A stretch of 64,000 nucleotides of DNA from an uncultured virus (IMG/VR IMGVR_UViG_3300031758_000059) (IMGVR_UViG_3300031758_000059), one strand, 5' to 3'; positions 3,321 to 24,186 are shown, counted from the stretch's first letter. Numbers and translations: made by a program. The notes: a model not told the origin generated them from the sequence alone.

Positions 3321-6300
3321 TTATACCATTGTTAGTGAACGCCAAGTTCCGTTAGCGTAAATATACAAACCAATTACACTATTCGTTTGATAAACTATCA
3401 ATCCTTCAGGAGGAGTTGAAATTGCAGTACGCTGCGCCTGCGTCATACGTGGAGGTAAGAATCCTTTAGTCGTACTACTCATCTCAAATAACGCTGCAGC
3501 ATTAATCGTTGACGTACCCAATCCTATTGCTGACCCGCTATCATATAGCAAGCTATCTCCAATCGCACTTGTTCCGGTAAACTTCGATAAATAATTTGTC
3601 GTACCTGTACCGGTAACAGGATTGGTTAATACACTCTGATAGATAGGTATATTTAATGTTGCTCCTACTAAAGTAGCTGCTCCTGATGTCCCCGTGGTCG
3701 TAAGTGTTATTGCCGCCTGCTTGTTGTTAAAGGTGTTCCAATCAGTGCTGCTTAAATATCCGTTTGAGCTTGCACCTGCCTGCGTGATAGCAATTGTCGT
3801 TCCTACAAGGGTAATCGGAGCCGTAACTGAAATGGTGTTCTGCTTATTATTAAACGTAGTCCAATCCGTAGAACTCAAGTATCCGTTCTGTGAACCGCTT
3901 GCTTGAAGGATTCCAACAGTACCTGAGCCTGTAATCGTACCACCCGTTAACGGGCCGCTAAATGTTATTGAAGTAACAGTACCTACCGACCACGTGCGGT
4001 TAACACTTAAGTCGTAACTCGTACCATTAATTGTCAAAGTTCTTGTATCAGGCACACCACCCAATCCACTTAACGTGTAGTTAGGGACGTTTAAGGTAGC
4101 TCCGACTAAAGTCGATGCACCGCTATTACCTGTAGTTGTTAGTGTAATGGCGTTCTGCTTATTATTGAAAGTGTTCCAATCAGTGGAACTCAAATAACCA
4201 TTTGAGCTTGTAGTTGCTTGCGTTATCCCTATTGTACCTGACCCGGTAATCGTACCACCCGTAATTGGCCCTGTAGTAGCAATGCTCGTTACTGTACCTA
4301 CACTCCAACTTCTGTTGGCTGTAAGGTCGTAAGCCGTTCCGTTAATGGTAAGCTGACGAGTATCAGGAACACCGCCAAGCCCCGCAAGTGAATACTGAGG
4401 GACATTAAGAACCCCTGTTAAATTGCTGTAAGTAGCAGCACCACTGTTTCCTGTTGTTGTTAAACTTATAGCCTGACGTGCTCTACTATCAGTAAAGTAT
4501 AGATTGGTTCCTTCAGAGATATTAGAAGTAGTAAGAACTACAGCCCCTGTAAATCCGTTTACTGATGTAACAGACTCTGTATTATCTACTTTCTGCCAAG
4601 CGGACCCGTGAAACACAATCCAATCCCCTACCTGCCATCCACTAATGCCATCAATAGTCGTATTACCTGCTACACTTACAATATAAAAGTACCCATCTGT
4701 ACCAACACCTGAAGTGATGGTAGGAGTATTTGTAGAAGCGTTCCACGTACCCTGATATTGAAGTCCACCTATAAGGTCATTTACTTGTCCTTGAAGCTTT
4801 CCTAAAGCGCTAAGAATACTATCAGTAGCAGATATTGCTGTGCCGGTCACTGTAAGACCTGTAAGCACCTTGCCTGTAACAGCAGAGTTACTGAGCGTGA
4901 CACTTGCTGCGCCCGGTCCACTTGCTGTGGCTTCACCCGTCAGTGAAGTAATATAGTTACCCTGCGCTTGATACTGAGGGATATTCAGCACGTTGGATAC
5001 CAACGTAGCTGCACCACTCGTACCTGTAGTCGTCAGAGATGTAATTCGATTATCGTATGCCTCATCCCATTCAGCTTGAACAGCATTCGTTGGAAGGCTA
5101 TACCCTGAAGCAAAAGTAAGTGCAAGCGTACCGCTTGATGTTACAGGATTTCCACCAATAGCAAACCCCGTAGGAACAGTCATGTCTACGCTTGTCACCG
5201 TACCTACTGACCACGTTCTATTTGCAGAAAGGTCATAAGTCGTACCATTAATCGTTAGCGTTCTTGACTGAGGCGTATAAGCTGTAGTATCAACTATCAG
5301 CGTACCATTTGAGCCCGAAGTCTTAAGTATACCATTGGTAGTATACCCGATAAGCTGAATGCTTAAGTCAGAATTTAGTGACATGGTGTAGTTACCACCA
5401 TTCACCTCAAACATTATCTTACCGCCTACATTGTAGTTAGCAAGCGTAACCCTTGTTTCTGCAGTATTATAATACAAAGCACCGCTACCTGCTCCCATGT
5501 TTGTCAAATAATACGCAGGAGCTGTAACTGAGTTTGCAAATGTCTTTGCGCCACCTATCGTCTGAGTCGTAGCGTTCACAAATCCTCTTGCTGAAGCTGA
5601 CGCATCAGGGATATTGAACGTATGAACAGTACCTGCACTAACAATATTGAAGTCAGTACCTGTTGTTCCGGTAGCAAACGTTTGATTTGAAGACAGCGCG
5701 AGGCCGTTTAATGTTCTTGTAAGAGGAACATATCTCAAATCTAAATCAACACTCGCAAGACCCGTCACGTGACCAAAGGTGTCAAGCGTTACATCTTGAA
5801 TAACCGTGCCACCTGCATTGTCAACACTTGTCTGAGACGAAGTATCTGCGTGGCTAATAGTTCCTGACGTAGTAATTGTACCACCGCTAAGACCTGAACC
5901 TGCAGTAATTGATGTAACAGTTCCTACGTTCCACGTTCTATTAGCGCTCAGGTCATACGTAGTACCATTGATGGTAAGCGTGATAGCCTGATTAGCCGGA
6001 GTGTATCCAAGAAGCGTAGCAATAGTTGCACTCTTCCAAAGATTAACTGTGGTATCACGGTATAGAACACCGTTATTTATGTAAGGGGTAGGAGCAACGT
6101 CATGTAGCTCCTCAAGCTCATAACCATTGTCAACCTTAACGTATATCTTACCATTGTTGGCATTAGAGTACTCTACGTATCCAACAATTACAGTATGCTG
6201 TGGCGCAGCCGGCTTGATATTAGTAATTGCACCCGGAGTAGTTGGACTCAAATAAAGAACGTCACCATCACTCCACGTCTCACCTTGAAGATTACCTGTA

Positions 6301-13056: not shown

Positions 13057-13234
13057 CGCTTCTGTTTATCTCAGTCCAATGCCCACACTTAGGGCACTCT
13101 AATAAGTCACCGTGATATAGTTCCACGTGGAACTCCGTCCACTCAATCTTACTCGCCTCAACCAAAGCAAGCCATTGGTAGTTGCATCTCGCACACTCCA
13201 TAGGATATGCTATGTTCTCTTGGCCTACGGTCAT
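13049..13234 (-). CDS. Small zinc-ribbon protein
   Basis: CARC...CPKC; coupled to the groEL stop by an ATGA overlap. Confidence 0.55.
   Translation of the reverse strand: MTVGQENIAYPMECARCNYQWLALVEASKIEWTEFHVELYHGDLLECPKCGHWTEINRSDV
13119..13134. promoter_or_regulatory. parS-like palindrome
   Basis: AGTTCCACGTGGAACT, a perfect 16-bp palindrome with the parS core GTTCCACGTGGAAC. Confidence 0.55.
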
Positions 13235-14829
13235 TTGGTCTCGTATGAGCGTGCCATGGTGATAATGGCGTTAGTGGATAAAATGGTTGTTGCTACGCTC
13301 ACTGCATTCTGCAAAGCTGAACGAGTGACTTTCAGTGGGTCAATCACCCCCATTTTAATCAGGTCGCCCATCTCGCGGGTCTTGACGTTTAAGCCGAACC
13401 CATCGGACACGTCCGATGTATAGTGGTCCTCCGCTTTTAACCCCGCATTGTCAAGTATCTGCTCAAGAGGCGCTTTGAGCGCGCTCTGCAGTATCTGCGC
13501 TGCAACGTCCTGCTCCTCTTGGGTGACCTCACCCAAAAGGTCGAACACCTCAACTTCGTACAGCGCCTTGCCCCCACCGGGCAGTATCCCTTCCTCAAGC
13601 GCTGAGCGAACGGCATGCACCGCATCGTCAACCCTGTCATATAGCTCCTTCTGCTCAAGGTCAGTGTTTCCACCTACATAGATAACCCCAATACCCCCCG
13701 TAAGCGAAGCAATGCGCTCAAGCAAGTGGTCACGGTCAGCCTTTTTCTTGGCAACCCTGTGCGCCTCCCAAAGCTGCGCCACCCTCGTCTCCACCTTCTC
13801 TTGGTCGACCTTCAGCTCACTTTTTAAAATGATAGTGGTATCCTTTGACACCACAACCTTCGCGGCATGTCCCAAATCGGCATAACTTATCTGCGATAAG
13901 TCGTCACCGGTCTTCTCGGAAAAGTAAATGGCTCCTACTGACACGGCAAGGTCTTGCATCAGCTCATGCTGCTTATACCCAAAGCTCGGAGGCTGCACCG
14001 CACAAAGCTTGAGATTGTTCTTCATCACATTCGCGGCAAAGGTATTGACCACGTTCACGTGGCAGGGAGCCACAATCAGCAGCTTCTTGCCCTCTTGGAT
14101 AATTGGTTTCAAAACAGCTTCTATCTGCAGGATATTGCTTATCTCAATGTCAGCTACCAAAATGTATACGTCCTCAAAGACGCATTCGTCCCTTCCTTGG
14201 TCGTTTATAAAAAGTGGGCTGTAGTACCCTCTGTCGATTTTTAGGCCCTTGGTGGTCTCCGCATAGGTCTCAGCGGTCTGTGACCGCTCTACGGTCACAA
14301 TCCCCTGTCGGCCCACGTCCTTATACACCTCGGCAATTATCTTCCCAATCTCGCGGTCGTTGTTGGCTGAAATAGAGGCAATGTCAACAAGCATACTGCT
14401 TGAGACCTTCTTGCTGCGCCTGCGCAGCCTATCCACCACCTTTGTGGACAAGTCCACCATATTGCGTAGCACCTCCGTCCGGTTATGGTGTGGCTTCATC
14501 AGGTTAAGACCACCAAGTACGAGCGCCTCAGTAAGTACGATAGCTGTCGTAGTTCCGTCCCCCGCAAGGGTGGCCGTCCGGTCTGCTGCCTCCTTCATCA
14601 TCTTAACCGCCAAGTTCTCGACAGGGTCCAACAAGTCAACCGCCTTAGCCACCGTAACCCCATCCTTCGTAACCGTAATACCATGCGTGTGCTGAGGAGA
14701 CTCAATAAGCACCGTGTTACCACTCGGCCCCAACGTGCTTTTAACCGCTTGTGCCATCTTTTCAATGCCACTAATAAGCTTCTGCCGACCCTGTTCGGCA
14801 AAGACTAAGTCTTTAGGAGAATATTCCAT
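13231..14829 (-). CDS. groEL: Chaperonin GroEL (Cpn60)
   Basis: AVKSTLGPSG, VTKDGVTVAK, AGDGTTTAIVL, DRVDDA, EEGILPGGG and GVIDPLKVTRSALQNA; no C-terminal GGM tail. Confidence 0.97.
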   Translation of the reverse strand: MEYSPKDLVFAEQGRQKLISGIEKMAQAVKSTLGPSGNTVLIESPQHTHGITVTKDGVTVAKAVDLLDPVENLAVKMMKEAADRTATLAGDGTTTAIVLTEALVLGGLNLMKPHHNRTEVLRNMVDLSTKVVDRLRRRSKKVSSSMLVDIASISANNDREIGKIIAEVYKDVGRQGIVTVERSQTAETYAETTKGLKIDRGYYSPLFINDQGRDECVFEDVYILVADIEISNILQIEAVLKPIIQEGKKLLIVAPCHVNVVNTFAANVMKNNLKLCAVQPPSFGYKQHELMQDLAVSVGAIYFSEKTGDDLSQISYADLGHAAKVVVSKDTTIILKSELKVDQEKVETRVAQLWEAHRVAKKKADRDHLLERIASLTGGIGVIYVGGNTDLEQKELYDRVDDAVHAVRSALEEGILPGGGKALYEVEVFDLLGEVTQEEQDVAAQILQSALKAPLEQILDNAGLKAEDHYTSDVSDGFGLNVKTREMGDLIKMGVIDPLKVTRSALQNAVSVATTILSTNAIITMARSYETK

Positions 14830-14925: not shown

Positions 14926-15101
14926 ATTTCGATAGTGAGCTATCGAAATGACAAGTTCTTCCTTCCCTATTATATATATATATTTACCTCCTTTTATATA
15001 GAATTTTATGGTTATAGTTCATTTTTAAAATCGACATAATCGACATAAATAATAATAATCAATAAGTTAAGTAACATAAAATCTGTCATTGAATGACAGA
15101 T
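14926..15101. repeat. AT-rich origin-like element, copy A
   Basis: Inverted repeats at 14926-14949 and 15081-15101 flank a (TA)n tract and tandem TCGACATAA; related to 24030-24186. Confidence 0.5.
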
Positions 15102-15908: not shown

Positions 15909-16484
15909 ATGAGTTTACTTACCATTGAGCGCAACTTTTTAAAACTACCTGAGGTAGCCACAGCGCTTCGCCTCTCTGAGGTGCGCACGATACAGCGCAC
16001 GATTGCAAACGCCAAAAAGAAAAAGTTCGAGCAGTCGCTCGCCCTGTCTCAGCACGTTCAATCCGCTTTCGAGTGGTTTAAAAGTGAAGACGGACGCGCG
16101 AAGTTCAGCGAAGAGGGTATCGTGTGGACGGCTGAGGACTTTGGGTTGAAGGTCTTCGGATGGCAAAGGTCATTTTTCTACAAAATGCTTCGGGTGGCTT
16201 CGCTACCTTCTGAGGTGGTCGAGCGCTACAGCGCGCAGGCTGACGAGCAGGGCGAGGACGCACAGCGGAGCATTGAGGAGTTATTGAGCTACGCGAAGCA
16301 GGTGGAAGAGGGGAGCGAAGAAGGTGGAACAGGGGAGCGCCCGCAAATTATCCTTTCTCTTGTCTTCAATCATCCTGACGGCAAGACTACCATAAAAATC
16401 AACGATGCGGGGCAGGTCAAAATTTCGGGCGAGAATATTCGCGAAGCTATCCAATTGTTAACCTCTTCAATCAATTTACAATGA
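15909..16484 (+). CDS. Hypothetical early protein, possibly DNA-binding
   Basis: First gene of the plus arm; AATCAAA leader before the ATG at 15909; the WTAEDFGLKVFGWQRSFFYKMLRVA segment resembles an HTH. Confidence 0.6.
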   Translation: MSLLTIERNFLKLPEVATALRLSEVRTIQRTIANAKKKKFEQSLALSQHVQSAFEWFKSEDGRAKFSEEGIVWTAEDFGLKVFGWQRSFFYKMLRVASLPSEVVERYSAQADEQGEDAQRSIEELLSYAKQVEEGSEEGGTGERPQIILSLVFNHPDGKTTIKINDAGQVKISGENIREAIQLLTSSINLQ

Positions 16485-17401
16485 GTCAGGGCATTATATA
16501 CGGCTTGCATGGTGCAGGCGAAAACAGATGGGGCAATTTAGTGTCACGCGGTCAGGTACAGCCGTATCACGACAAACCGCATCCCCTCAACATTTCAAAG
16601 GGCGGGCACGCGGTTGACATTGCGGGGCTTAAAAAGAAGGTGACAAGGGATACCATCCTTCTTGAGAATGGCGAATATGGCGCGCGCTTTACGATAGGCT
16701 TTGAGATTGAAAAAAACGCCCTACACAGAAACGCGGTGCAGGAATACCCCCTGCTTTGTGGCTTCGAGCGTGACGGGTCGTGTGGATATGAGGCGGTGAC
16801 GCACATTTTGCCCCTGCTCCCTGCGAGTAAGTGGCGAAATAAAGTGTTTGACATGTTCGTACAGGCTGAGAAGATTATCGATGACAGGTTCAGTCCGTCC
16901 GATAAGCGGTGCGGTGGGCACGTTACAATCGCGGTGCAGGGGATGAGCGGGGACGAGCTACGCGAAGCCATCCGCAAAAATTGTGGCATCCTTTACGCCC
17001 TATTTCGCAAGCGTTTGACCAATGGCTTTTGCTCGAGAAATAGACGGATGCAAACAGAGAGTGAGGTGCATTTGGGGCAATATAGCGAGACAGGCGGGTG
17101 GCATGAAAAATATCAGGTTGCGCTCGTCAAAGACAAGTGTCTTGAGTTTCGCCTGCCTTCAAAGGTTGAGAGTGTAAAACAGCTCCTGAGACGCTATGAG
17201 CTACTTTTTGAGATGGTGAACTTCACCATCAATTGCCCCAACGGCTCGCACGAGGCGCTTCTCAAGCGCGTGCGCCCAATTGTCAAAAGCATGTACAATG
17301 GGGACGATGCGAAAACGGACGGCATCCTTGAGCTCGCGCGCCACTTCCGCAAGTTCATTCTAACGGGTGAACGGCATGGGGACATCGTGCGCTATCTGTG
17401 A
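16481..17401 (+). CDS. Putative amidoligase (COOH-NH2 ligase type 2)
   Basis: TIGFEIE, RDGSCGYEAVT, CGGHVTI and LEFRLP motifs. Confidence 0.8.
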   Translation: MSQGIIYGLHGAGENRWGNLVSRGQVQPYHDKPHPLNISKGGHAVDIAGLKKKVTRDTILLENGEYGARFTIGFEIEKNALHRNAVQEYPLLCGFERDGSCGYEAVTHILPLLPASKWRNKVFDMFVQAEKIIDDRFSPSDKRCGGHVTIAVQGMSGDELREAIRKNCGILYALFRKRLTNGFCSRNRRMQTESEVHLGQYSETGGWHEKYQVALVKDKCLEFRLPSKVESVKQLLRRYELLFEMVNFTINCPNGSHEALLKRVRPIVKSMYNGDDAKTDGILELARHFRKFILTGERHGDIVRYL

Positions 17402-17501: not shown

Positions 17502-17612
17502 ATGGGAACACACATTACAATTTTGGAGGCGGTCGCGCTTAGCGCGGTGAGTCTCTTCGCTTATGTCTTTATTGCAACCTTATTCGATTACCTTAAAAAC
17601 CCAAACAAATGA
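17502..17612 (+). CDS. Small single-TM protein, 36 aa (absent from the ORF track)
   Basis: MGTHITILEAVALSAVSLFAYVFIATLFDYLKNPNK; AAATCAAATCAAA leader; ATGA overlap with the next gene. Confidence 0.65.
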   Translation: MGTHITILEAVALSAVSLFAYVFIATLFDYLKNPNK

Positions 17613-18151
17613 GACGCATTACTGAGATGATGGCGTGCGCCTTCGAGAGAGGGCGTCAGCTACGGATGAGCAACAGCTACACAGACGGCACGTCCCTGTG
17701 GCTACATGGCAACAAAATCGCGGAGGACAGAGGCGGTGAGCTATGGATAACGAGTGCGGGGTGGCGAACAAACGTAACAAAGGAGAGGCTTAACGGGCTG
17801 ACGGGTGTAAATATCCAACAGCGCAGGGGCACGTGGTATCTAAACGGACAGCAGTGGGACGGGGAGTGGACGAGGGTGGACGGATACGAGTGGCAGGCTG
17901 TGCCTCAAGAACCTGAGTTTGACATGACGAGCGAGTGGACGGGTAAGTACAGCCGTCCATTGTATGCCATCTTACACACGCATGACGCGGACGAGTTGTG
18001 CGGGGTGGAGAAAATACTCAATGAAGAAGGTATACCGCACCGCAGGCACGAGACTGACACGACAGGAGAGTGGAGACCAAATCACTTTGTGGTGGTGCTC
18101 CCTGCGGACTACGAGCGGGCAAAGAGGTTAACTGAAGAGGCTTATGCTTAG
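17609..18151 (+). CDS. Hypothetical early protein; its 3' end lies inside hammerhead 1
   Basis: 180-aa Trp-rich ORF (LWLHGNKIA...GWRTNVTKERLN). Confidence 0.75.
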   Translation: MRRITEMMACAFERGRQLRMSNSYTDGTSLWLHGNKIAEDRGGELWITSAGWRTNVTKERLNGLTGVNIQQRRGTWYLNGQQWDGEWTRVDGYEWQAVPQEPEFDMTSEWTGKYSRPLYAILHTHDADELCGVEKILNEEGIPHRRHETDTTGEWRPNHFVVVLPADYERAKRLTEEAYA

Positions 18152-18193
18152 CCGAAACGTGAGCGAGTGAATCGAGCTCGCCACGTCTTAACC
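18126..18193 (+). ncRNA. Hammerhead ribozyme 1 (type I)
   Basis: Stem I GGUUAA/UUAACC, core CUGAAGA, stem II GGCU/AGCC, GAAA, stem III ACGUG..GCGAG/CUCGC..CACGU, GUC triplet; predicted cut after 18187. Confidence 0.93.
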
Positions 18194-18206
18194 AAATCAA
18201 AGTAAA

Positions 18207-18407
18207 ATGATAATCAGAAACGGATTCGTATGGTTGGCGGTGACCAACAAAGCAAAAGAGGTTTTCCAAAGCGGGCTATTTGAGGTTTACAAATTGCATG
18301 ATGATGAAAGTGAAAGCCTGTGTGAAAGCTATGCAGACATAAATGATGCGCTTGAGTTTGGGCTTGATTTAGCTATCGAGGTAGGTAGGTTAACTGATGA
18401 GGGTTAA
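18207..18407 (+). CDS. Hypothetical 66-aa protein bracketed by two hammerheads
   Basis: Starts 19 nt after the HHR1 cut site; stop codon lies in loop II of HHR2. Confidence 0.75.
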   Translation: MIIRNGFVWLAVTNKAKEVFQSGLFEVYKLHDDESESLCESYADINDALEFGLDLAIEVGRLTDEG

Positions 18408-18459
18408 ATTACCCGAAACGGAATCACACGGGCTCGCCCGTGTGACCCCCGTCTTAACC
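18388..18459 (+). ncRNA. Hammerhead ribozyme 2 (type I)
   Basis: Stem I GGUUAA/UUAACC, core CUGAUGA, stem II GGGU/ACCC, GAAA, stem III ACGG..UCACACGGGC/GCCCGUGUGA..CCGU, GUC triplet; predicted cut after 18453. Confidence 0.95.
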
Positions 18460-18473
18460 AAATCAAATCAAAT

Positions 18474-18704
18474 ATGATACTACACGAAAGAGACCACAAA
18501 GCAATCGCAAAAGCGAAGGAGCTACTAAAAAACTACGGGTACTTTACGGACAATCTTTGGCACGTTAATGACGTGATGAATAGGTTTGAATGTGACGAAG
18601 ATACCGCGCAAAGTATACTAAACGATGCCCTCACAAATGACGCAACCTTTGAGCAAGTTTGGCTTGCTATTGACTGCGCTATTCAATCACATGTAAATCT
18701 GTAA
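18474..18704 (+). CDS. Hypothetical early protein
   Basis: 76-aa ORF starting 20 nt after the HHR2 cut site, with an AAATCAAATCAAAT leader. Confidence 0.7.
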   Translation: MILHERDHKAIAKAKELLKNYGYFTDNLWHVNDVMNRFECDEDTAQSILNDALTNDATFEQVWLAIDCAIQSHVNL

Positions 18705-18707
18705 ACC

Positions 18708-18899
18708 ATGACACACGAAGAAAGGATTAATCTAATTCAGGGGCTCAATGACAGACTCCTGTACCTATCAGAGGAGAAGAGAAAAGAGTTTCTCGGCTAC
18801 CTTGACGCGCTGTATAGCGTCTATCAGTTCGACAGAGTTGTGAGGTATGGCAAAGACATCATCAAAACCGAAAGCAATGGAGAGAGAGTACCTGTTTAA
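18708..18899 (+). CDS. Hypothetical protein
   Basis: Tightly packed 63-aa ORF in the early cluster. Confidence 0.55.
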   Translation: MTHEERINLIQGLNDRLLYLSEEKRKEFLGYLDALYSVYQFDRVVRYGKDIIKTESNGERVPV

Positions 18900-19035
18900 A
18901 GTTTACTACGGGCTTGAGTTTGTCAAGCTCGTGACTGCCCGCTCAAGGTGGGAGGCGGTCGAGCTTGTGTATAGCAGGCTCGTCCTTGACTATCCCGAAC
19001 TTATTCGGAGCAAAATAAGGGTTAAAAAAGTTTGA
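18847..19035 (+). CDS. Hypothetical protein (true start possibly the internal MEREY)
   Basis: Fills the gap up to the next promoter. Confidence 0.5.
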   Translation: MAKTSSKPKAMEREYLFKVYYGLEFVKLVTARSRWEAVELVYSRLVLDYPELIRSKIRVKKV

Positions 19036-19061
19036 TATGTTCAAATTTTGTCGTATCTTTG
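19031..19061 (+). promoter_or_regulatory. Bacteroidota sigma70-type promoter
   Basis: TTTG (19031-19034), 19-nt spacer, TATCTTTG (19054-19061). Confidence 0.8.
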
Positions 19062-19144
19062 TCTAAATTTAGTTCAATAACAGGGCTCGGTGCGTGTATT
19101 GTGTCTTCAAAGACACAGCGTACTACCCATAAATCAAATCAGCT

Positions 19145-22375: not shown

Positions 22376-22966
22376 ATGGCAAACGAAAAAACCGTTTACG
22401 CAACCTTGTCGGCTATAAGCGTCAAGGAGAAAATCGAACGCAAGGGAAACCTTGACTATCTATCATGGGCAAATGCTTGGTCCATGCTCAAATCCAATTA
22501 CCCCGATGCACAGCGCAGAGTTTATGAGAACGCTGACGGGATGAACTACTTCAGCGATGGGACATCTTGTTGGGTGAAGGTGGGTATCACCGTTGGAGGT
22601 ATTGAGCATATTGACTACCTGCCTATCATGGACTTTAAAAATCAGTCCATCCCACTAACAAAGGTGACGTCTATTGATGTGACCAAAGCTATTCAGCGAA
22701 GCACTGCAAAGGCAATTGCGATGCACGGACTTGGACTATCCCTTTGGACGGGTGAAGACCTTCCTGAGATGGTTGCTGAAGCACCGAAGAAACCCGCGCA
22801 GGACGAGCTTCTTGAGTTGAAGAAAGGCACAGCGAATTGGGAGGCGGTGGTAAAGTATGTGACGGACAACAAGGCACAGGGCATTGAGGCAATCGGCAAA
22901 CAGCTTGTTCGTAAGTACAAAATTTCACCCGCACTCAAAAAAGAAATCGCTGAGCTATGCAAGTAA
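22376..22966 (+). CDS. Single-strand annealing protein (Sak3/DUF1071-like)
   Basis: LDYLSWANAW...YLPIMDFKN...KAIQRSTAKAIAMHGLGLSLWTGEDLP. Confidence 0.8.
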   Translation: MANEKTVYATLSAISVKEKIERKGNLDYLSWANAWSMLKSNYPDAQRRVYENADGMNYFSDGTSCWVKVGITVGGIEHIDYLPIMDFKNQSIPLTKVTSIDVTKAIQRSTAKAIAMHGLGLSLWTGEDLPEMVAEAPKKPAQDELLELKKGTANWEAVVKYVTDNKAQGIEAIGKQLVRKYKISPALKKEIAELCK

Positions 22967-23688
22967 TCGATAAACTTAGAGATGACCACGAGTATTACAG
23001 GGGGATAGGTAAGAACTACCTATCCAATTCAGACATCGGTGCGCTACTTACCAATCCTAAATCTTTCCGAAAGGATAGGGATGATAACAAGAGTTTTGCT
23101 GAGGGAAGGCTATTTCATCAGCTCTTGCTTGAACCTGAGAAGATTCACAAGGTAGACAGCGTTGACGTGAGCTCCCGTAATACCAAAGAGTACAAGACAT
23201 ATTGTTCGGAGCGCAATTTAGAGTTCGCCCTGCTTACAAAGGAGGTTGAGGAGATTCACAAGCTTGTCGGTGTAATTAAAGCAAACATTGCCTTTTACGA
23301 TGACATCTATCAGGCAGGCTCTTTGTATGAGGAGCCGATGGTAGGGGACATCAAAGGAGTAGAGTGGAAGGGGAAGGCTGACATCGTCACGCCTGAGTTT
23401 ATCATCGACCTGAAGACTACTTCTGACATCAACAAGTTCAAGTGGTCAGCCAAAGCCTATCACTATGACTCGCAGTGTTACATCTACCAACAGCTGTTTG
23501 GCAAACCCCTCGTCTTCTACGTCATCGACAAGGAGACGGCACAGCTCGGCATCTTTAGACCCACAGAGAACTTCATCAGAGGTGGGGAGCTAAAGGTTGA
23601 GCGCGCCATTGAGGTGTATCAAAAGTACTTTGGTCCTAACGCGACTGAGGATATAGACAATCATTTTATTAACGAAACATTAGACTAA
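22957..23688 (+). CDS. PD-(D/E)XK exonuclease (RecE/ExoVIII-like)
   Basis: LSNSDI, GRLFHQLLLEP, KGKADIV..IIDLKTT and YDSQCYIY; adjacent to the annealing protein. Confidence 0.8.
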   Translation: MQVIDKLRDDHEYYRGIGKNYLSNSDIGALLTNPKSFRKDRDDNKSFAEGRLFHQLLLEPEKIHKVDSVDVSSRNTKEYKTYCSERNLEFALLTKEVEEIHKLVGVIKANIAFYDDIYQAGSLYEEPMVGDIKGVEWKGKADIVTPEFIIDLKTTSDINKFKWSAKAYHYDSQCYIYQQLFGKPLVFYVIDKETAQLGIFRPTENFIRGGELKVERAIEVYQKYFGPNATEDIDNHFINETLD

Positions 23689-24029: not shown

Positions 24030-24186
24030 AATTTGTTCTTCTCCCTATACTATATATATATTTCTATATATTATTATTATTCTATAGAATACAAAGTAAA
24101 ATAAAAATTGACATAATTGACAGTAAGTTAGTAATCAATTGCTTAAGCGTACATATTAACGACATAACGATAACATTTATGACATA
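24030..24186. repeat. AT-rich origin-like element, copy B
   Basis: (TA)n tract and GACATA repeats directly upstream of the primase-helicase; related to 14955-15075. Confidence 0.5.

Follow-up and report, generated by a model that had tools for sequence, protein, structure and literature searches.

Two Type I Hammerheads Between Small Phage Genes

In this study, we analyzed a 64,000-nucleotide (nt) stretch of DNA from an uncultured virus (IMG/VR IMGVR_UViG_3300031758_000059), referred to below as the window, and within it three small genes, p180, p66 and p76, with a hammerhead ribozyme (HHR1 and HHR2) at each of the two junctions between them. Both elements proved to be genuine type I hammerheads, which adds two members to a phage family already known to be widespread. 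The features of the locus, all on the plus strand, are as follows (aa, amino acids).

17609-18151, plus strand: p180, a 180-aa gene (phrog_554; N-terminal part of Pfam PF23790 Kyano_Gp96, 34.9 bits)
18126-18193, plus strand: HHR1, type I hammerhead, predicted cut after 18187
18126-18131 and 18188-18193, plus strand: HHR1 stem I, GGUUAA and UUAACC
18132-18138, plus strand: HHR1 core, CUGAAGA
18139-18153, plus strand: HHR1 stem II with its loop
18154-18157, plus strand: HHR1 GAAA
18158-18185, plus strand: HHR1 stem III, followed by UC at 18186-18187
18188-18206, plus strand: 19-nt leader after the HHR1 cut, UUAACCAAAUCAAAGUAAA, with a predicted 5'-OH and no Shine-Dalgarno sequence
18188-18453, plus strand: predicted 266-nt unit, deduced from the two cut sites, consisting of leader, p66 and HHR2 at the 3' end
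18207-18407, plus strand: p66, a 66-aa gene with its TAA stop in HHR2 loop II and homologues of 76-83% identity in five viral contigs
18388-18459, plus strand: HHR2, type I hammerhead, predicted cut after 18453
18388-18393 and 18454-18459, plus strand: HHR2 stem I
18394-18400, plus strand: HHR2 core, CUGAUGA
18401-18414, plus strand: HHR2 stem II with its loop
18415-18418, plus strand: HHR2 GAAA
18419-18451, plus strand: HHR2 stem III, followed by UC at 18452-18453
18454-18473, plus strand: 20-nt leader behind the HHR2 cut, matching the HHR1 leader over its first 14 nt
18474-18704, plus strand: p76, a 76-aa gene, the first gene of the predicted 3' cleavage product

The two ribozymes start 262 nt apart, and 266 nt separate their cut sites. 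Stem I is identical in both, whereas stems II and III are wholly different in sequence yet still paired, stem II having 4 base pairs (bp). All invariant positions are present in HHR1 and HHR2 (C3 U4 G5 A6 N7 G8 A9, G12 A13 A14, the A15.1-U16.1 pair and an H17 that is not G), and the topology is that of a type I hammerhead, with an open stem I, loop-closed stems II and III and G10.1-C11.1 closing stem II. The minimum free energy (MFE) structure given by RNAfold was the canonical three-way junction for HHR1 (z -3.0), and for HHR2 it comprised all three stems plus extra core pairs (z -4.7). Stem I is limited to 6 bp, and the AG...AA on its flanks is conserved. The family also has a conserved loop II, a 5-nt UNARU-like sequence, in place of which HHR1 has the 7-nt UAUGCUU. 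An earlier note, made from the sequence alone, had placed two complete type I cores at these positions, with starts 262 nt apart and the same GGUUAA/UUAACC stem I in both. The spacing and stem I were confirmed, and the cores were borne out by the sequence, a structural descriptor, the fold and an independent covariance model. The note had also reasoned that double cleavage would release 18188-18453 with the whole 66-aa open reading frame (ORF), which the geometry supports, both cuts being predicted ones.

The last 8 codons of p180 and its TAG stop are encoded by HHR1 (stem I, core and loop II). A search of related loci with p180 gave no relative, and neither p66 nor p76 matched a PHROG or Pfam family. 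In relatives, p76 is placed elsewhere, downstream of the gene for a GGCT-domain protein.

Chance Expectation and an Independent Family Model

A descriptor consisting of the core and at least 4, 3 and 3 bp in stems I, II and III matched exactly two sites on both strands of the window, namely HHR1 and HHR2, and only one match in total was obtained in 300 simulated windows (first-order Markov). The bare core pattern was not significant: it occurred 13 times where 4.5 occurrences were expected on average, and 2 of 100 shuffles had 13 or more.

Because Rfam does not call HHR1 or HHR2, an independent covariance model, R1, was built. When IMG/VR was scanned for the pattern of a type I hammerhead with UUAA in stem I, at least 135 loci were obtained, many of which carried 3-8 copies. 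Alignment A1 was assembled from 74 distinct hammerheads on the contigs of that scan, none of them from the window, and R1 was built from these 74 copies of other viral contigs. R1 recognized HHR2 with 56.2 bits (E 5.6e-11) and HHR1 with 52.1 bits (E 5.1e-10), and nothing else in the 64-kb window at E<=10. The Rfam model RF00163 (threshold 34 bits) gave no match to HHR1 or HHR2 at E<=10; since it scores 27-30 bits even on short members of the phage hammerhead family, the Rfam miss is a property of the model rather than of HHR1 and HHR2. The Infernal search with Rfam models that the earlier note had recommended as a check thus turned out negative, as neither hammerhead reaches threshold. Two snoRNA matches in an Rfam scan of the small region were rejected as chance.

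Covariation and Placement at Gene Junctions

In A1 (n=74), 99.5% of cells were paired, against 25-39% in slid controls, a percentage that is inflated because the seeds had been preselected by a descriptor demanding pairing at the helix bases, whereas the diversity of pair types is not inflated by this. Two-sided changes were found in 13 of the 16 pairs, with 280 such cells against 75 in shuffled alignments, and the covariation score was 0.582 against 0.116 for shuffled alignments, a value reached by none of 500 shuffles. This strong family-wide covariation argues for selection on the fold. The suggestion in the earlier note that stems II and III, paired although different, point to structural selection agrees both with the family covariation and with a stem II swap in the locus L140, described below. 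Stem I GGUUAA/UUAACC is conserved throughout the family, with GC at its variable position in 40 of 74 members.

The position of the family relative to genes was surveyed on 132 distinct type I copies among the matches listed, to which the following counts also apply. An ORF of at least 30 codons started no more than 80 nt past the cut in 126 of the 129 copies with enough flank; 113 of these 126 ORFs started 12-32 nt after the cut, with a median of 23 nt. The stop codon of the incoming ORF lay at -13 to +11 nt of the C of CUGA in 114 of 120 cases, and the stop was often the stem I TAA (35 cases), the TGA within CUGA (24) or a TAG immediately ahead of stem I (18). As the stop and start positions are so tight, the ribozyme and a leader of about 20 nt make up the whole intergenic region. 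Across the family (L001-L135), stops are present in three frames, provided by the stem I TAA, the CUGA TGA and often a loop II TRA or an upstream TAG, and therefore any gene running into the ribozyme is terminated. The window fits this layout, with p180 and p66 both stopping in loop II of the next ribozyme. Single hammerheads outnumber arrays, with 69 locus-strands against 34.

Two further family observations were made. In the locus L141, two type I copies (3418-3476 and 3678-3733) have GAAU...GAC instead of GAAA...GUC, which reverses the pair to U15.1-A16.1, whereas 74 of 74 seeds have A-U there; these copies may be a natural test of pair tolerance, or may be inactive. The cultured Flavobacterium phage vB_FspP_elemoA_7-9A (MT497017.1) also has a single family member, scored at 54.1 bits and located at 17288-17349 on the minus strand, where two small genes of that strand flank it; a plus-strand 35-aa "hypothetical protein" annotated over the ribozyme at 17275-17382 is probably spurious.

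Related Loci and the Junctions Around p66

To collect relatives of the locus, the genes p306 and GGCT on its flanks served as anchors. These anchor-selected relatives contained 30 type I matches as well as type III hammerheads (RF00008, scores of 29-48.7 bits, most of them slightly below the threshold of 48.5), and both types were found at varying junctions of the same small-gene block, with the same stop and start layout as in the window. The small genes p180, p66, p76, p63, p62 and p60 occur in differing orders across 12 related loci. The type III hammerheads (RF00008) were located as follows.

L140, 2501-2555: one type III hammerhead
L141, 2059-2113 and 3076-3130: two type III hammerheads
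L143, 2014-2068, 2851-2906 and 5153-5207: three type III hammerheads
L151, 248-302, 1536-1590 and 2201-2253: three type III hammerheads
L186, 1445-1499: one type III hammerhead
L187, 1422-1477: one type III hammerhead
L189, 436-490: one type III hammerhead

Five contigs encode p66 at 76-83% identity, and in none of them is the gene immediately preceded by a hammerhead. Four of the five have one just after p66, which belongs to type I in L185 and to type III in L186, L187 and L189, while L188 has none within 1.2 kb on either side. In L148 (p66 at 70% identity), no hammerhead was found by either the type I or the type III search. A type I hammerhead thus follows p66 in the window, L185 and L190, and a type III hammerhead does so in L186, L187 and L189, and this exchange at one junction suggests that it is the cut that matters, not the topology. 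In L140 (p66 at 83% identity), the order is hammerhead, p180, p66, HHR2 orthologue and p62, with no ribozyme between p180 and p66, so that the p180-p66 junction occurs in relatives without the hammerhead of about 70 nt. The HHR2 orthologue of L140 (3665-3737) has the same stem III arms and a wholly different stem II that is still paired.

L190 is the sole metagenome contig sharing stem III of HHR2 and comes from a near-identical strain, with protein identities of 98.5% for p66, 100% for p76, p63 and p62, and 99.6% for the GGCT protein; its HHR2 copy differs in the stem III loop only. Other searches from this region were negative: with a 101-nt query for HHR2, no more than chance matches of 25 nt (E 0.9) appeared, and DNA searches of the phage collection with the hammerhead region, near and distant, gave no match. 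The nearest record begins at about position 24060 of the window and therefore leaves out this locus. Both ribozymes are kept with p66 only in L190, and even there the upstream copy differs. The gene cassette with its two ribozymes, which the earlier note had put forward, is therefore not a conserved unit, given that none of the five p66 relatives has a hammerhead directly upstream, and p66 is flanked on both sides only because this strain happens to have ribozymes at those two junctions.

A related observation was made at the start of the 306-aa gene. At 16455-16480 of the window, GTTAACC stands 22 nt before the ATG of this gene, and the upstream ORF overlaps the start; R1 found no ribozyme at this junction of the window. 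The same junction has a full type I hammerhead in relatives (L153, 3925-3983; L173, 3914-3985; L140, 1504-1567), and the GTTAACC is possibly the remnant of a lost hammerhead.

The Phage and Its Gene Block

The window is from a tailed phage, with terminase, portal, virion protein, tail and GroEL genes all on the minus strand and a plus-strand block at about 15.9-28 kb that holds small genes, a GGCT-domain protein, a RecE-like exonuclease, a primase/helicase and a helicase. Two of the neighboring genes are located as follows.

13231-14829, minus strand: phage GroEL (phrog_5725, E 3e-130)
22957-23688: RecE-like exonuclease

The DNA sources carrying this phage stretch are freshwater metagenomes, and the source is an uncultured tailed phage of roughly 60 kb from fresh water, in which the hammerheads lie inside a rightward early/replication gene block. 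The best relative of TerL, at 77.8% identity, belongs to an uncultured "Podoviridae sp." from a spring (MW202828.1), and TerL is about 45% identical to that of phages of Flavobacterium, Cellulophaga and Tenacibaculum; the nearest cultured relatives infect Flavobacteriia. The window GroEL is shared with MW202828.1 and with the Flavobacterium elemo phages, the latter group also having GroES. In the related locus L151, two tRNA genes (5159-5229 and 5296-5368) lie directly downstream of the GGCT gene; no Rfam tRNA match was obtained in the window.

A core Shine-Dalgarno sequence (GGAG, GAGG or AGGA) was found at none of the 28 gene starts listed in the window, and weak GGA or AAGG was seen at only three of them. 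A/T-rich leaders like AAAUCAAA recur, for example before GroEL (14829) and GGCT (19145). A Bacteroidota host is consistent with these starts lacking Shine-Dalgarno sequences and with the A-rich AAAUCAAA-like leaders. A special mode of initiation on the leader behind the ribozyme was considered and rejected, because a clear Shine-Dalgarno sequence is absent from all 28 listed starts. A promoter-like site is present at 15024-15059, and no plus-strand terminator-like site was found between 14800 and 21000, which makes co-transcription through both ribozymes plausible. No sequencing run registered as RNA was found to contain the stretch, and contigs from run X20 ("RNA? probably DNA") cover only 18507-18731 and 19024-19073 of the window.

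Function of the Two Hammerheads

The integrity of both motifs, their family membership, the covariation, the placement of stops and starts and the non-conservation of the bracket around p66 were observed. Considering these results, HHR1 and HHR2 probably cut an early polycistronic RNA co-transcriptionally into linear single-gene mRNAs and so insulate gene cassettes that are shuffled between phages. In this model, the gene block is probably transcribed as one long RNA, and each ribozyme would fold while being made and cut after its GUC. The RNA of the upstream gene would then end in a 2',3'-cyclic phosphate, with the compact ribozyme as a structured 3' end, and the RNA of the downstream gene would start with a 5'-OH, followed by some 20 nt of A-rich, unstructured leader before the AUG. 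The outcome would be linear mRNAs of one or a few genes, whose stability and translation would be independent of their neighbors, and such insulation would suit a region where related phages gain, lose and shuffle small genes. What we infer from the listed observations is that the block is co-transcribed, that cleavage takes place in vivo and that stability and translation are affected.

Several results weigh against this proposal. Rfam gave no match over the window at gathering thresholds and none across the whole window at E<=1, and in the small-region scan the match of HHR1 to RAGATH-1-hammerhead, at 19.9 bits, lay below the threshold of 56.3. The preselection of the A1 seeds for pairing belongs here as well. 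No pairing partner for a tertiary contact between stem I and loop II was identified in HHR1 or HHR2, and the atypical 7-nt loop II makes the cleavage rate of HHR1 at cellular Mg2+ uncertain. MW202828.1, the nearest complete public genome, had no hammerhead in the 58.9 of 60.85 kb searched, and therefore whatever the ribozymes do is dispensable. Relatives that do without hammerheads, the atypical loop and the missing contact would also fit the view that HHR1 and HHR2 are inactive or decaying relics, or merely structured RNA such as 3' stabilizing hairpins, that do not cut, and core variants in some relatives, such as the U15.1-A16.1 swap in both L141 copies, point the same way. We regard this view as very improbable, since every invariant core position is intact in HHR1 and HHR2, the strong covariation of the family implies selection on the fold, and the HHR2 orthologue of L140 has changed all of stem II with pairing kept. 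Moreover, according to the available part of PMC3088659, cleavage has been shown for comparable phage arrays both in vitro and in E. coli.

The earlier note had seen in the identical stem I a gene cassette ready for circularization: the 5' UUAACC of the 266-nt fragment would pair with the GGUUAA of HHR2, and the ends would be sealed by the ribozyme or by a host RtcB-type ligase, giving a circular p66 mRNA. The geometry is correct, as the fragment has the whole HHR2 core, a C17>p 3' end and the matching stem I strand at its 5' end, and RNAs flanked by hammerheads circularize in viroids, retrozymes and engineered systems, as described in the accessible portions of PMC7761336, PMC7229834 and PMC4344496. 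When the cross-junction helix was forced in silico, it cost only about +1.9 kcal/mol relative to the MFE; its predicted occupancy in the excised 266-nt RNA was nevertheless about 5%, so that the proposed re-pairing is possible by sequence and seldom formed in the predicted ensemble. The identity of stem I is a family-wide trait and not special to HHR1 and HHR2: adjacent hammerheads were compatible in stem I in 29 of 44 pairs (66%), against 59% of random pairs from different loci, among the matches listed and with both figures inflated by the UUAA-based ascertainment. In the other 15 of the 44 adjacent pairs, the released 5' end cannot build the full stem I of its neighbor, whereas every ribozyme pairs with its own 3' strand, and most family members are single. 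The non-conservation of the p66 bracket, with no upstream hammerhead in any of the five relatives and none within 1.2 kb in L188, also speaks against a circle, and in L140 the hammerhead-to-hammerhead unit comprises p180 and p66. The p66 ORF has a stop codon, and the genome has no Shine-Dalgarno sequence to recruit ribosomes internally. The first 14 nt past 18453 would be the same in a circle and in the linear RNA, after which AAAG followed by UAAAAUG in the circle would stand against AAAU followed by CAAAUAUG in the linear RNA. Circular or spliced products of such arrays were sought by Perreault and colleagues in 2011, who detected none ("data not shown"), as far as the available text of PMC3088659 goes, and our literature search on RtcB, circular RNA and prophage hammerheads found nothing on phages. 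Nothing singles out the 266-nt unit as built for circularization, and a functional circular mRNA is unsupported and, in our estimate, highly unlikely. It is equally doubtful that the excised unit is closed and that the circle serves as a long-lived mRNA or as an intermediate moving cassettes between phages; if it did, a cassette-moving circle would explain why the mosaic unit of L190, discussed next, coincides with the RNA unit from cut to cut.

A tentative alternative, which we consider possible though rather unlikely, is that the hammerheads are maintained chiefly as portable borders of gene cassettes in the DNA. The conserved ribozyme ends, the 15-nt AGGTTAACTGAnGAG and the 18-nt CGTCTTAACCAAATCAAA, would serve as homology linkers for swapping units of leader, gene and ribozyme, and RNA cleavage would permit expression of whichever gene had newly been joined. 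The two views, this one and the cutting of the transcript into linear mRNAs, are compatible and do not exclude each other. L190 is about 100% identical to the window from the 3' end of HHR1 rightwards, and left of HHR1 it is unrelated, with other stems II and III and an upstream gene that is not p180 and was not found in a search of other loci. The breakpoint is located as follows.

18124-18195 of the window, against about 283-372 of L190 (reverse strand): mosaic breakpoint inside HHR1

With the breakpoint inside HHR1 and the unit 18188-18453 about 100% conserved in L190, the unit of DNA exchange coincides with the RNA unit from cut to cut. Recombination at the conserved ends of the ribozyme is the simplest reading of this sequence comparison. 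The shuffled order of the small genes across the 12 related loci and the RecE-like exonuclease encoded by the phage also fit. DNA contigs of run X16, from a related population, show three joints, 18151>18413, 18401>18796 and 18471>18708, which skip 261, 394 and 236 nt, each with one end in a hammerhead or no more than 20 nt from one, although two of the three rest on 22 letters on the shorter side at 80% likeness, with one contig each; one skip removes exactly the p76 ORF. The ends of high-scoring segment pairs (HSPs) fell in hammerhead intervals at 2.2 times the length share (47 of 1057 against 2.0%; 54 anchor-selected loci), an excess on which we do not rely, because any intergenic spacer collects HSP ends and the loci overlap and are not independent. 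On the other hand, many shuffled junctions have no hammerhead, a homology of 15-18 nt is short for recombination, and a limited literature search found no published proposal of hammerheads as recombination or mosaic boundaries.

Comparison With Known Systems

The arrangement has been known in phages since 2011, so that two extra examples matter little by themselves. The value of the present data lies in the counts for how tightly the ribozymes are built in at gene junctions, with the stop in the ribozyme and the start about 20 nt past the cut, in the replacement of type I by type III at the same junction, which points to the cut as the selected function, and in the mosaic breakpoint inside a ribozyme, which makes the cassette-boundary idea testable. 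In addition, the cultured phage vB_FspP_elemoA_7-9A, with its one family member, offers an experimental system for the purpose of bacterial and phage hammerheads.

In the part of their report available to us, Perreault et al. (2011, PMC3088659) described prophage hammerheads that flank individual genes, proposed that these process transcripts into single-gene mRNAs and showed that three other arrays cleaved in vitro and in E. coli. They also considered "spliced or circular RNA products" and detected neither. The earlier note had known of no description of such a circularization-ready gene cassette; the gene-flanking arrangement and the idea of circular products were both published in that text. 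The observation is repeated in two reviews (PMC6765202 and PMC6155905), the former, in its available part, also giving the single-gene mRNA reading. Like those arrays, HHR1 and HHR2 are same-strand hammerheads between small, non-conserved phage genes, as far as the accessible text (PMC3088659) describes them: two same-strand copies surround one ORF, and the flanked genes vary between relatives. The arrays tested in the same text were taken from Clostridium, Azorhizobium and Agrobacterium prophages and often belonged to type II, unlike the two type I copies found here in a freshwater phage related to phages of Flavobacteriia. The stop inside the ribozyme, the 12-32 nt leader and the exchange of type I and type III are quantified here and were not found stated in the available part of PMC3088659.

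HHR1 and HHR2 share with the type I family of Rfam (RF00163, clan CL00010) the same core, the open stem I, G10.1-C11.1 and A15.1-U16.1. Helix III is long and stable here (28-33 nt), in contrast to the short helix III of metazoan type I hammerheads (PMC13725137). As in retrozymes and viroid-like RNAs (PMC4918200, PMC7229834 and PMC7761336, each as far as available), two direct hammerheads could release a ligatable unit with 5'-OH and 2',3'-cyclic phosphate ends. According to the same partial sources, those RNAs do not encode proteins, their ribozyme is embedded in long direct repeats, and they have been observed in circular form. The unit of the window is protein-coding and its bracket is not conserved; the sequence shared from end to end consists of the conserved parts of the ribozyme and an 18-nt stretch, unlike the repeats of retrozymes, and no reverse transcriptase was seen in the window.

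The type I hammerheads of eukaryotic RNA viruses are similar in having a long helix III and a position just upstream of an ORF start, with the cut 7 nt before the AUG in one instance, and the ribozyme has been proposed there to aid translation initiation. In contrast, HHR1 and HHR2 belong to a bacterial DNA phage, in which the leader resembles every other leader in the genome. In synthetic insulators such as RiboJ, a self-cleaving ribozyme placed before a gene strips the upstream context and leaves a hairpin on the downstream RNA. The type I copies described here would instead leave the ribozyme on the upstream RNA, and RiboJ is therefore an engineered analogue of this arrangement, not a relative.

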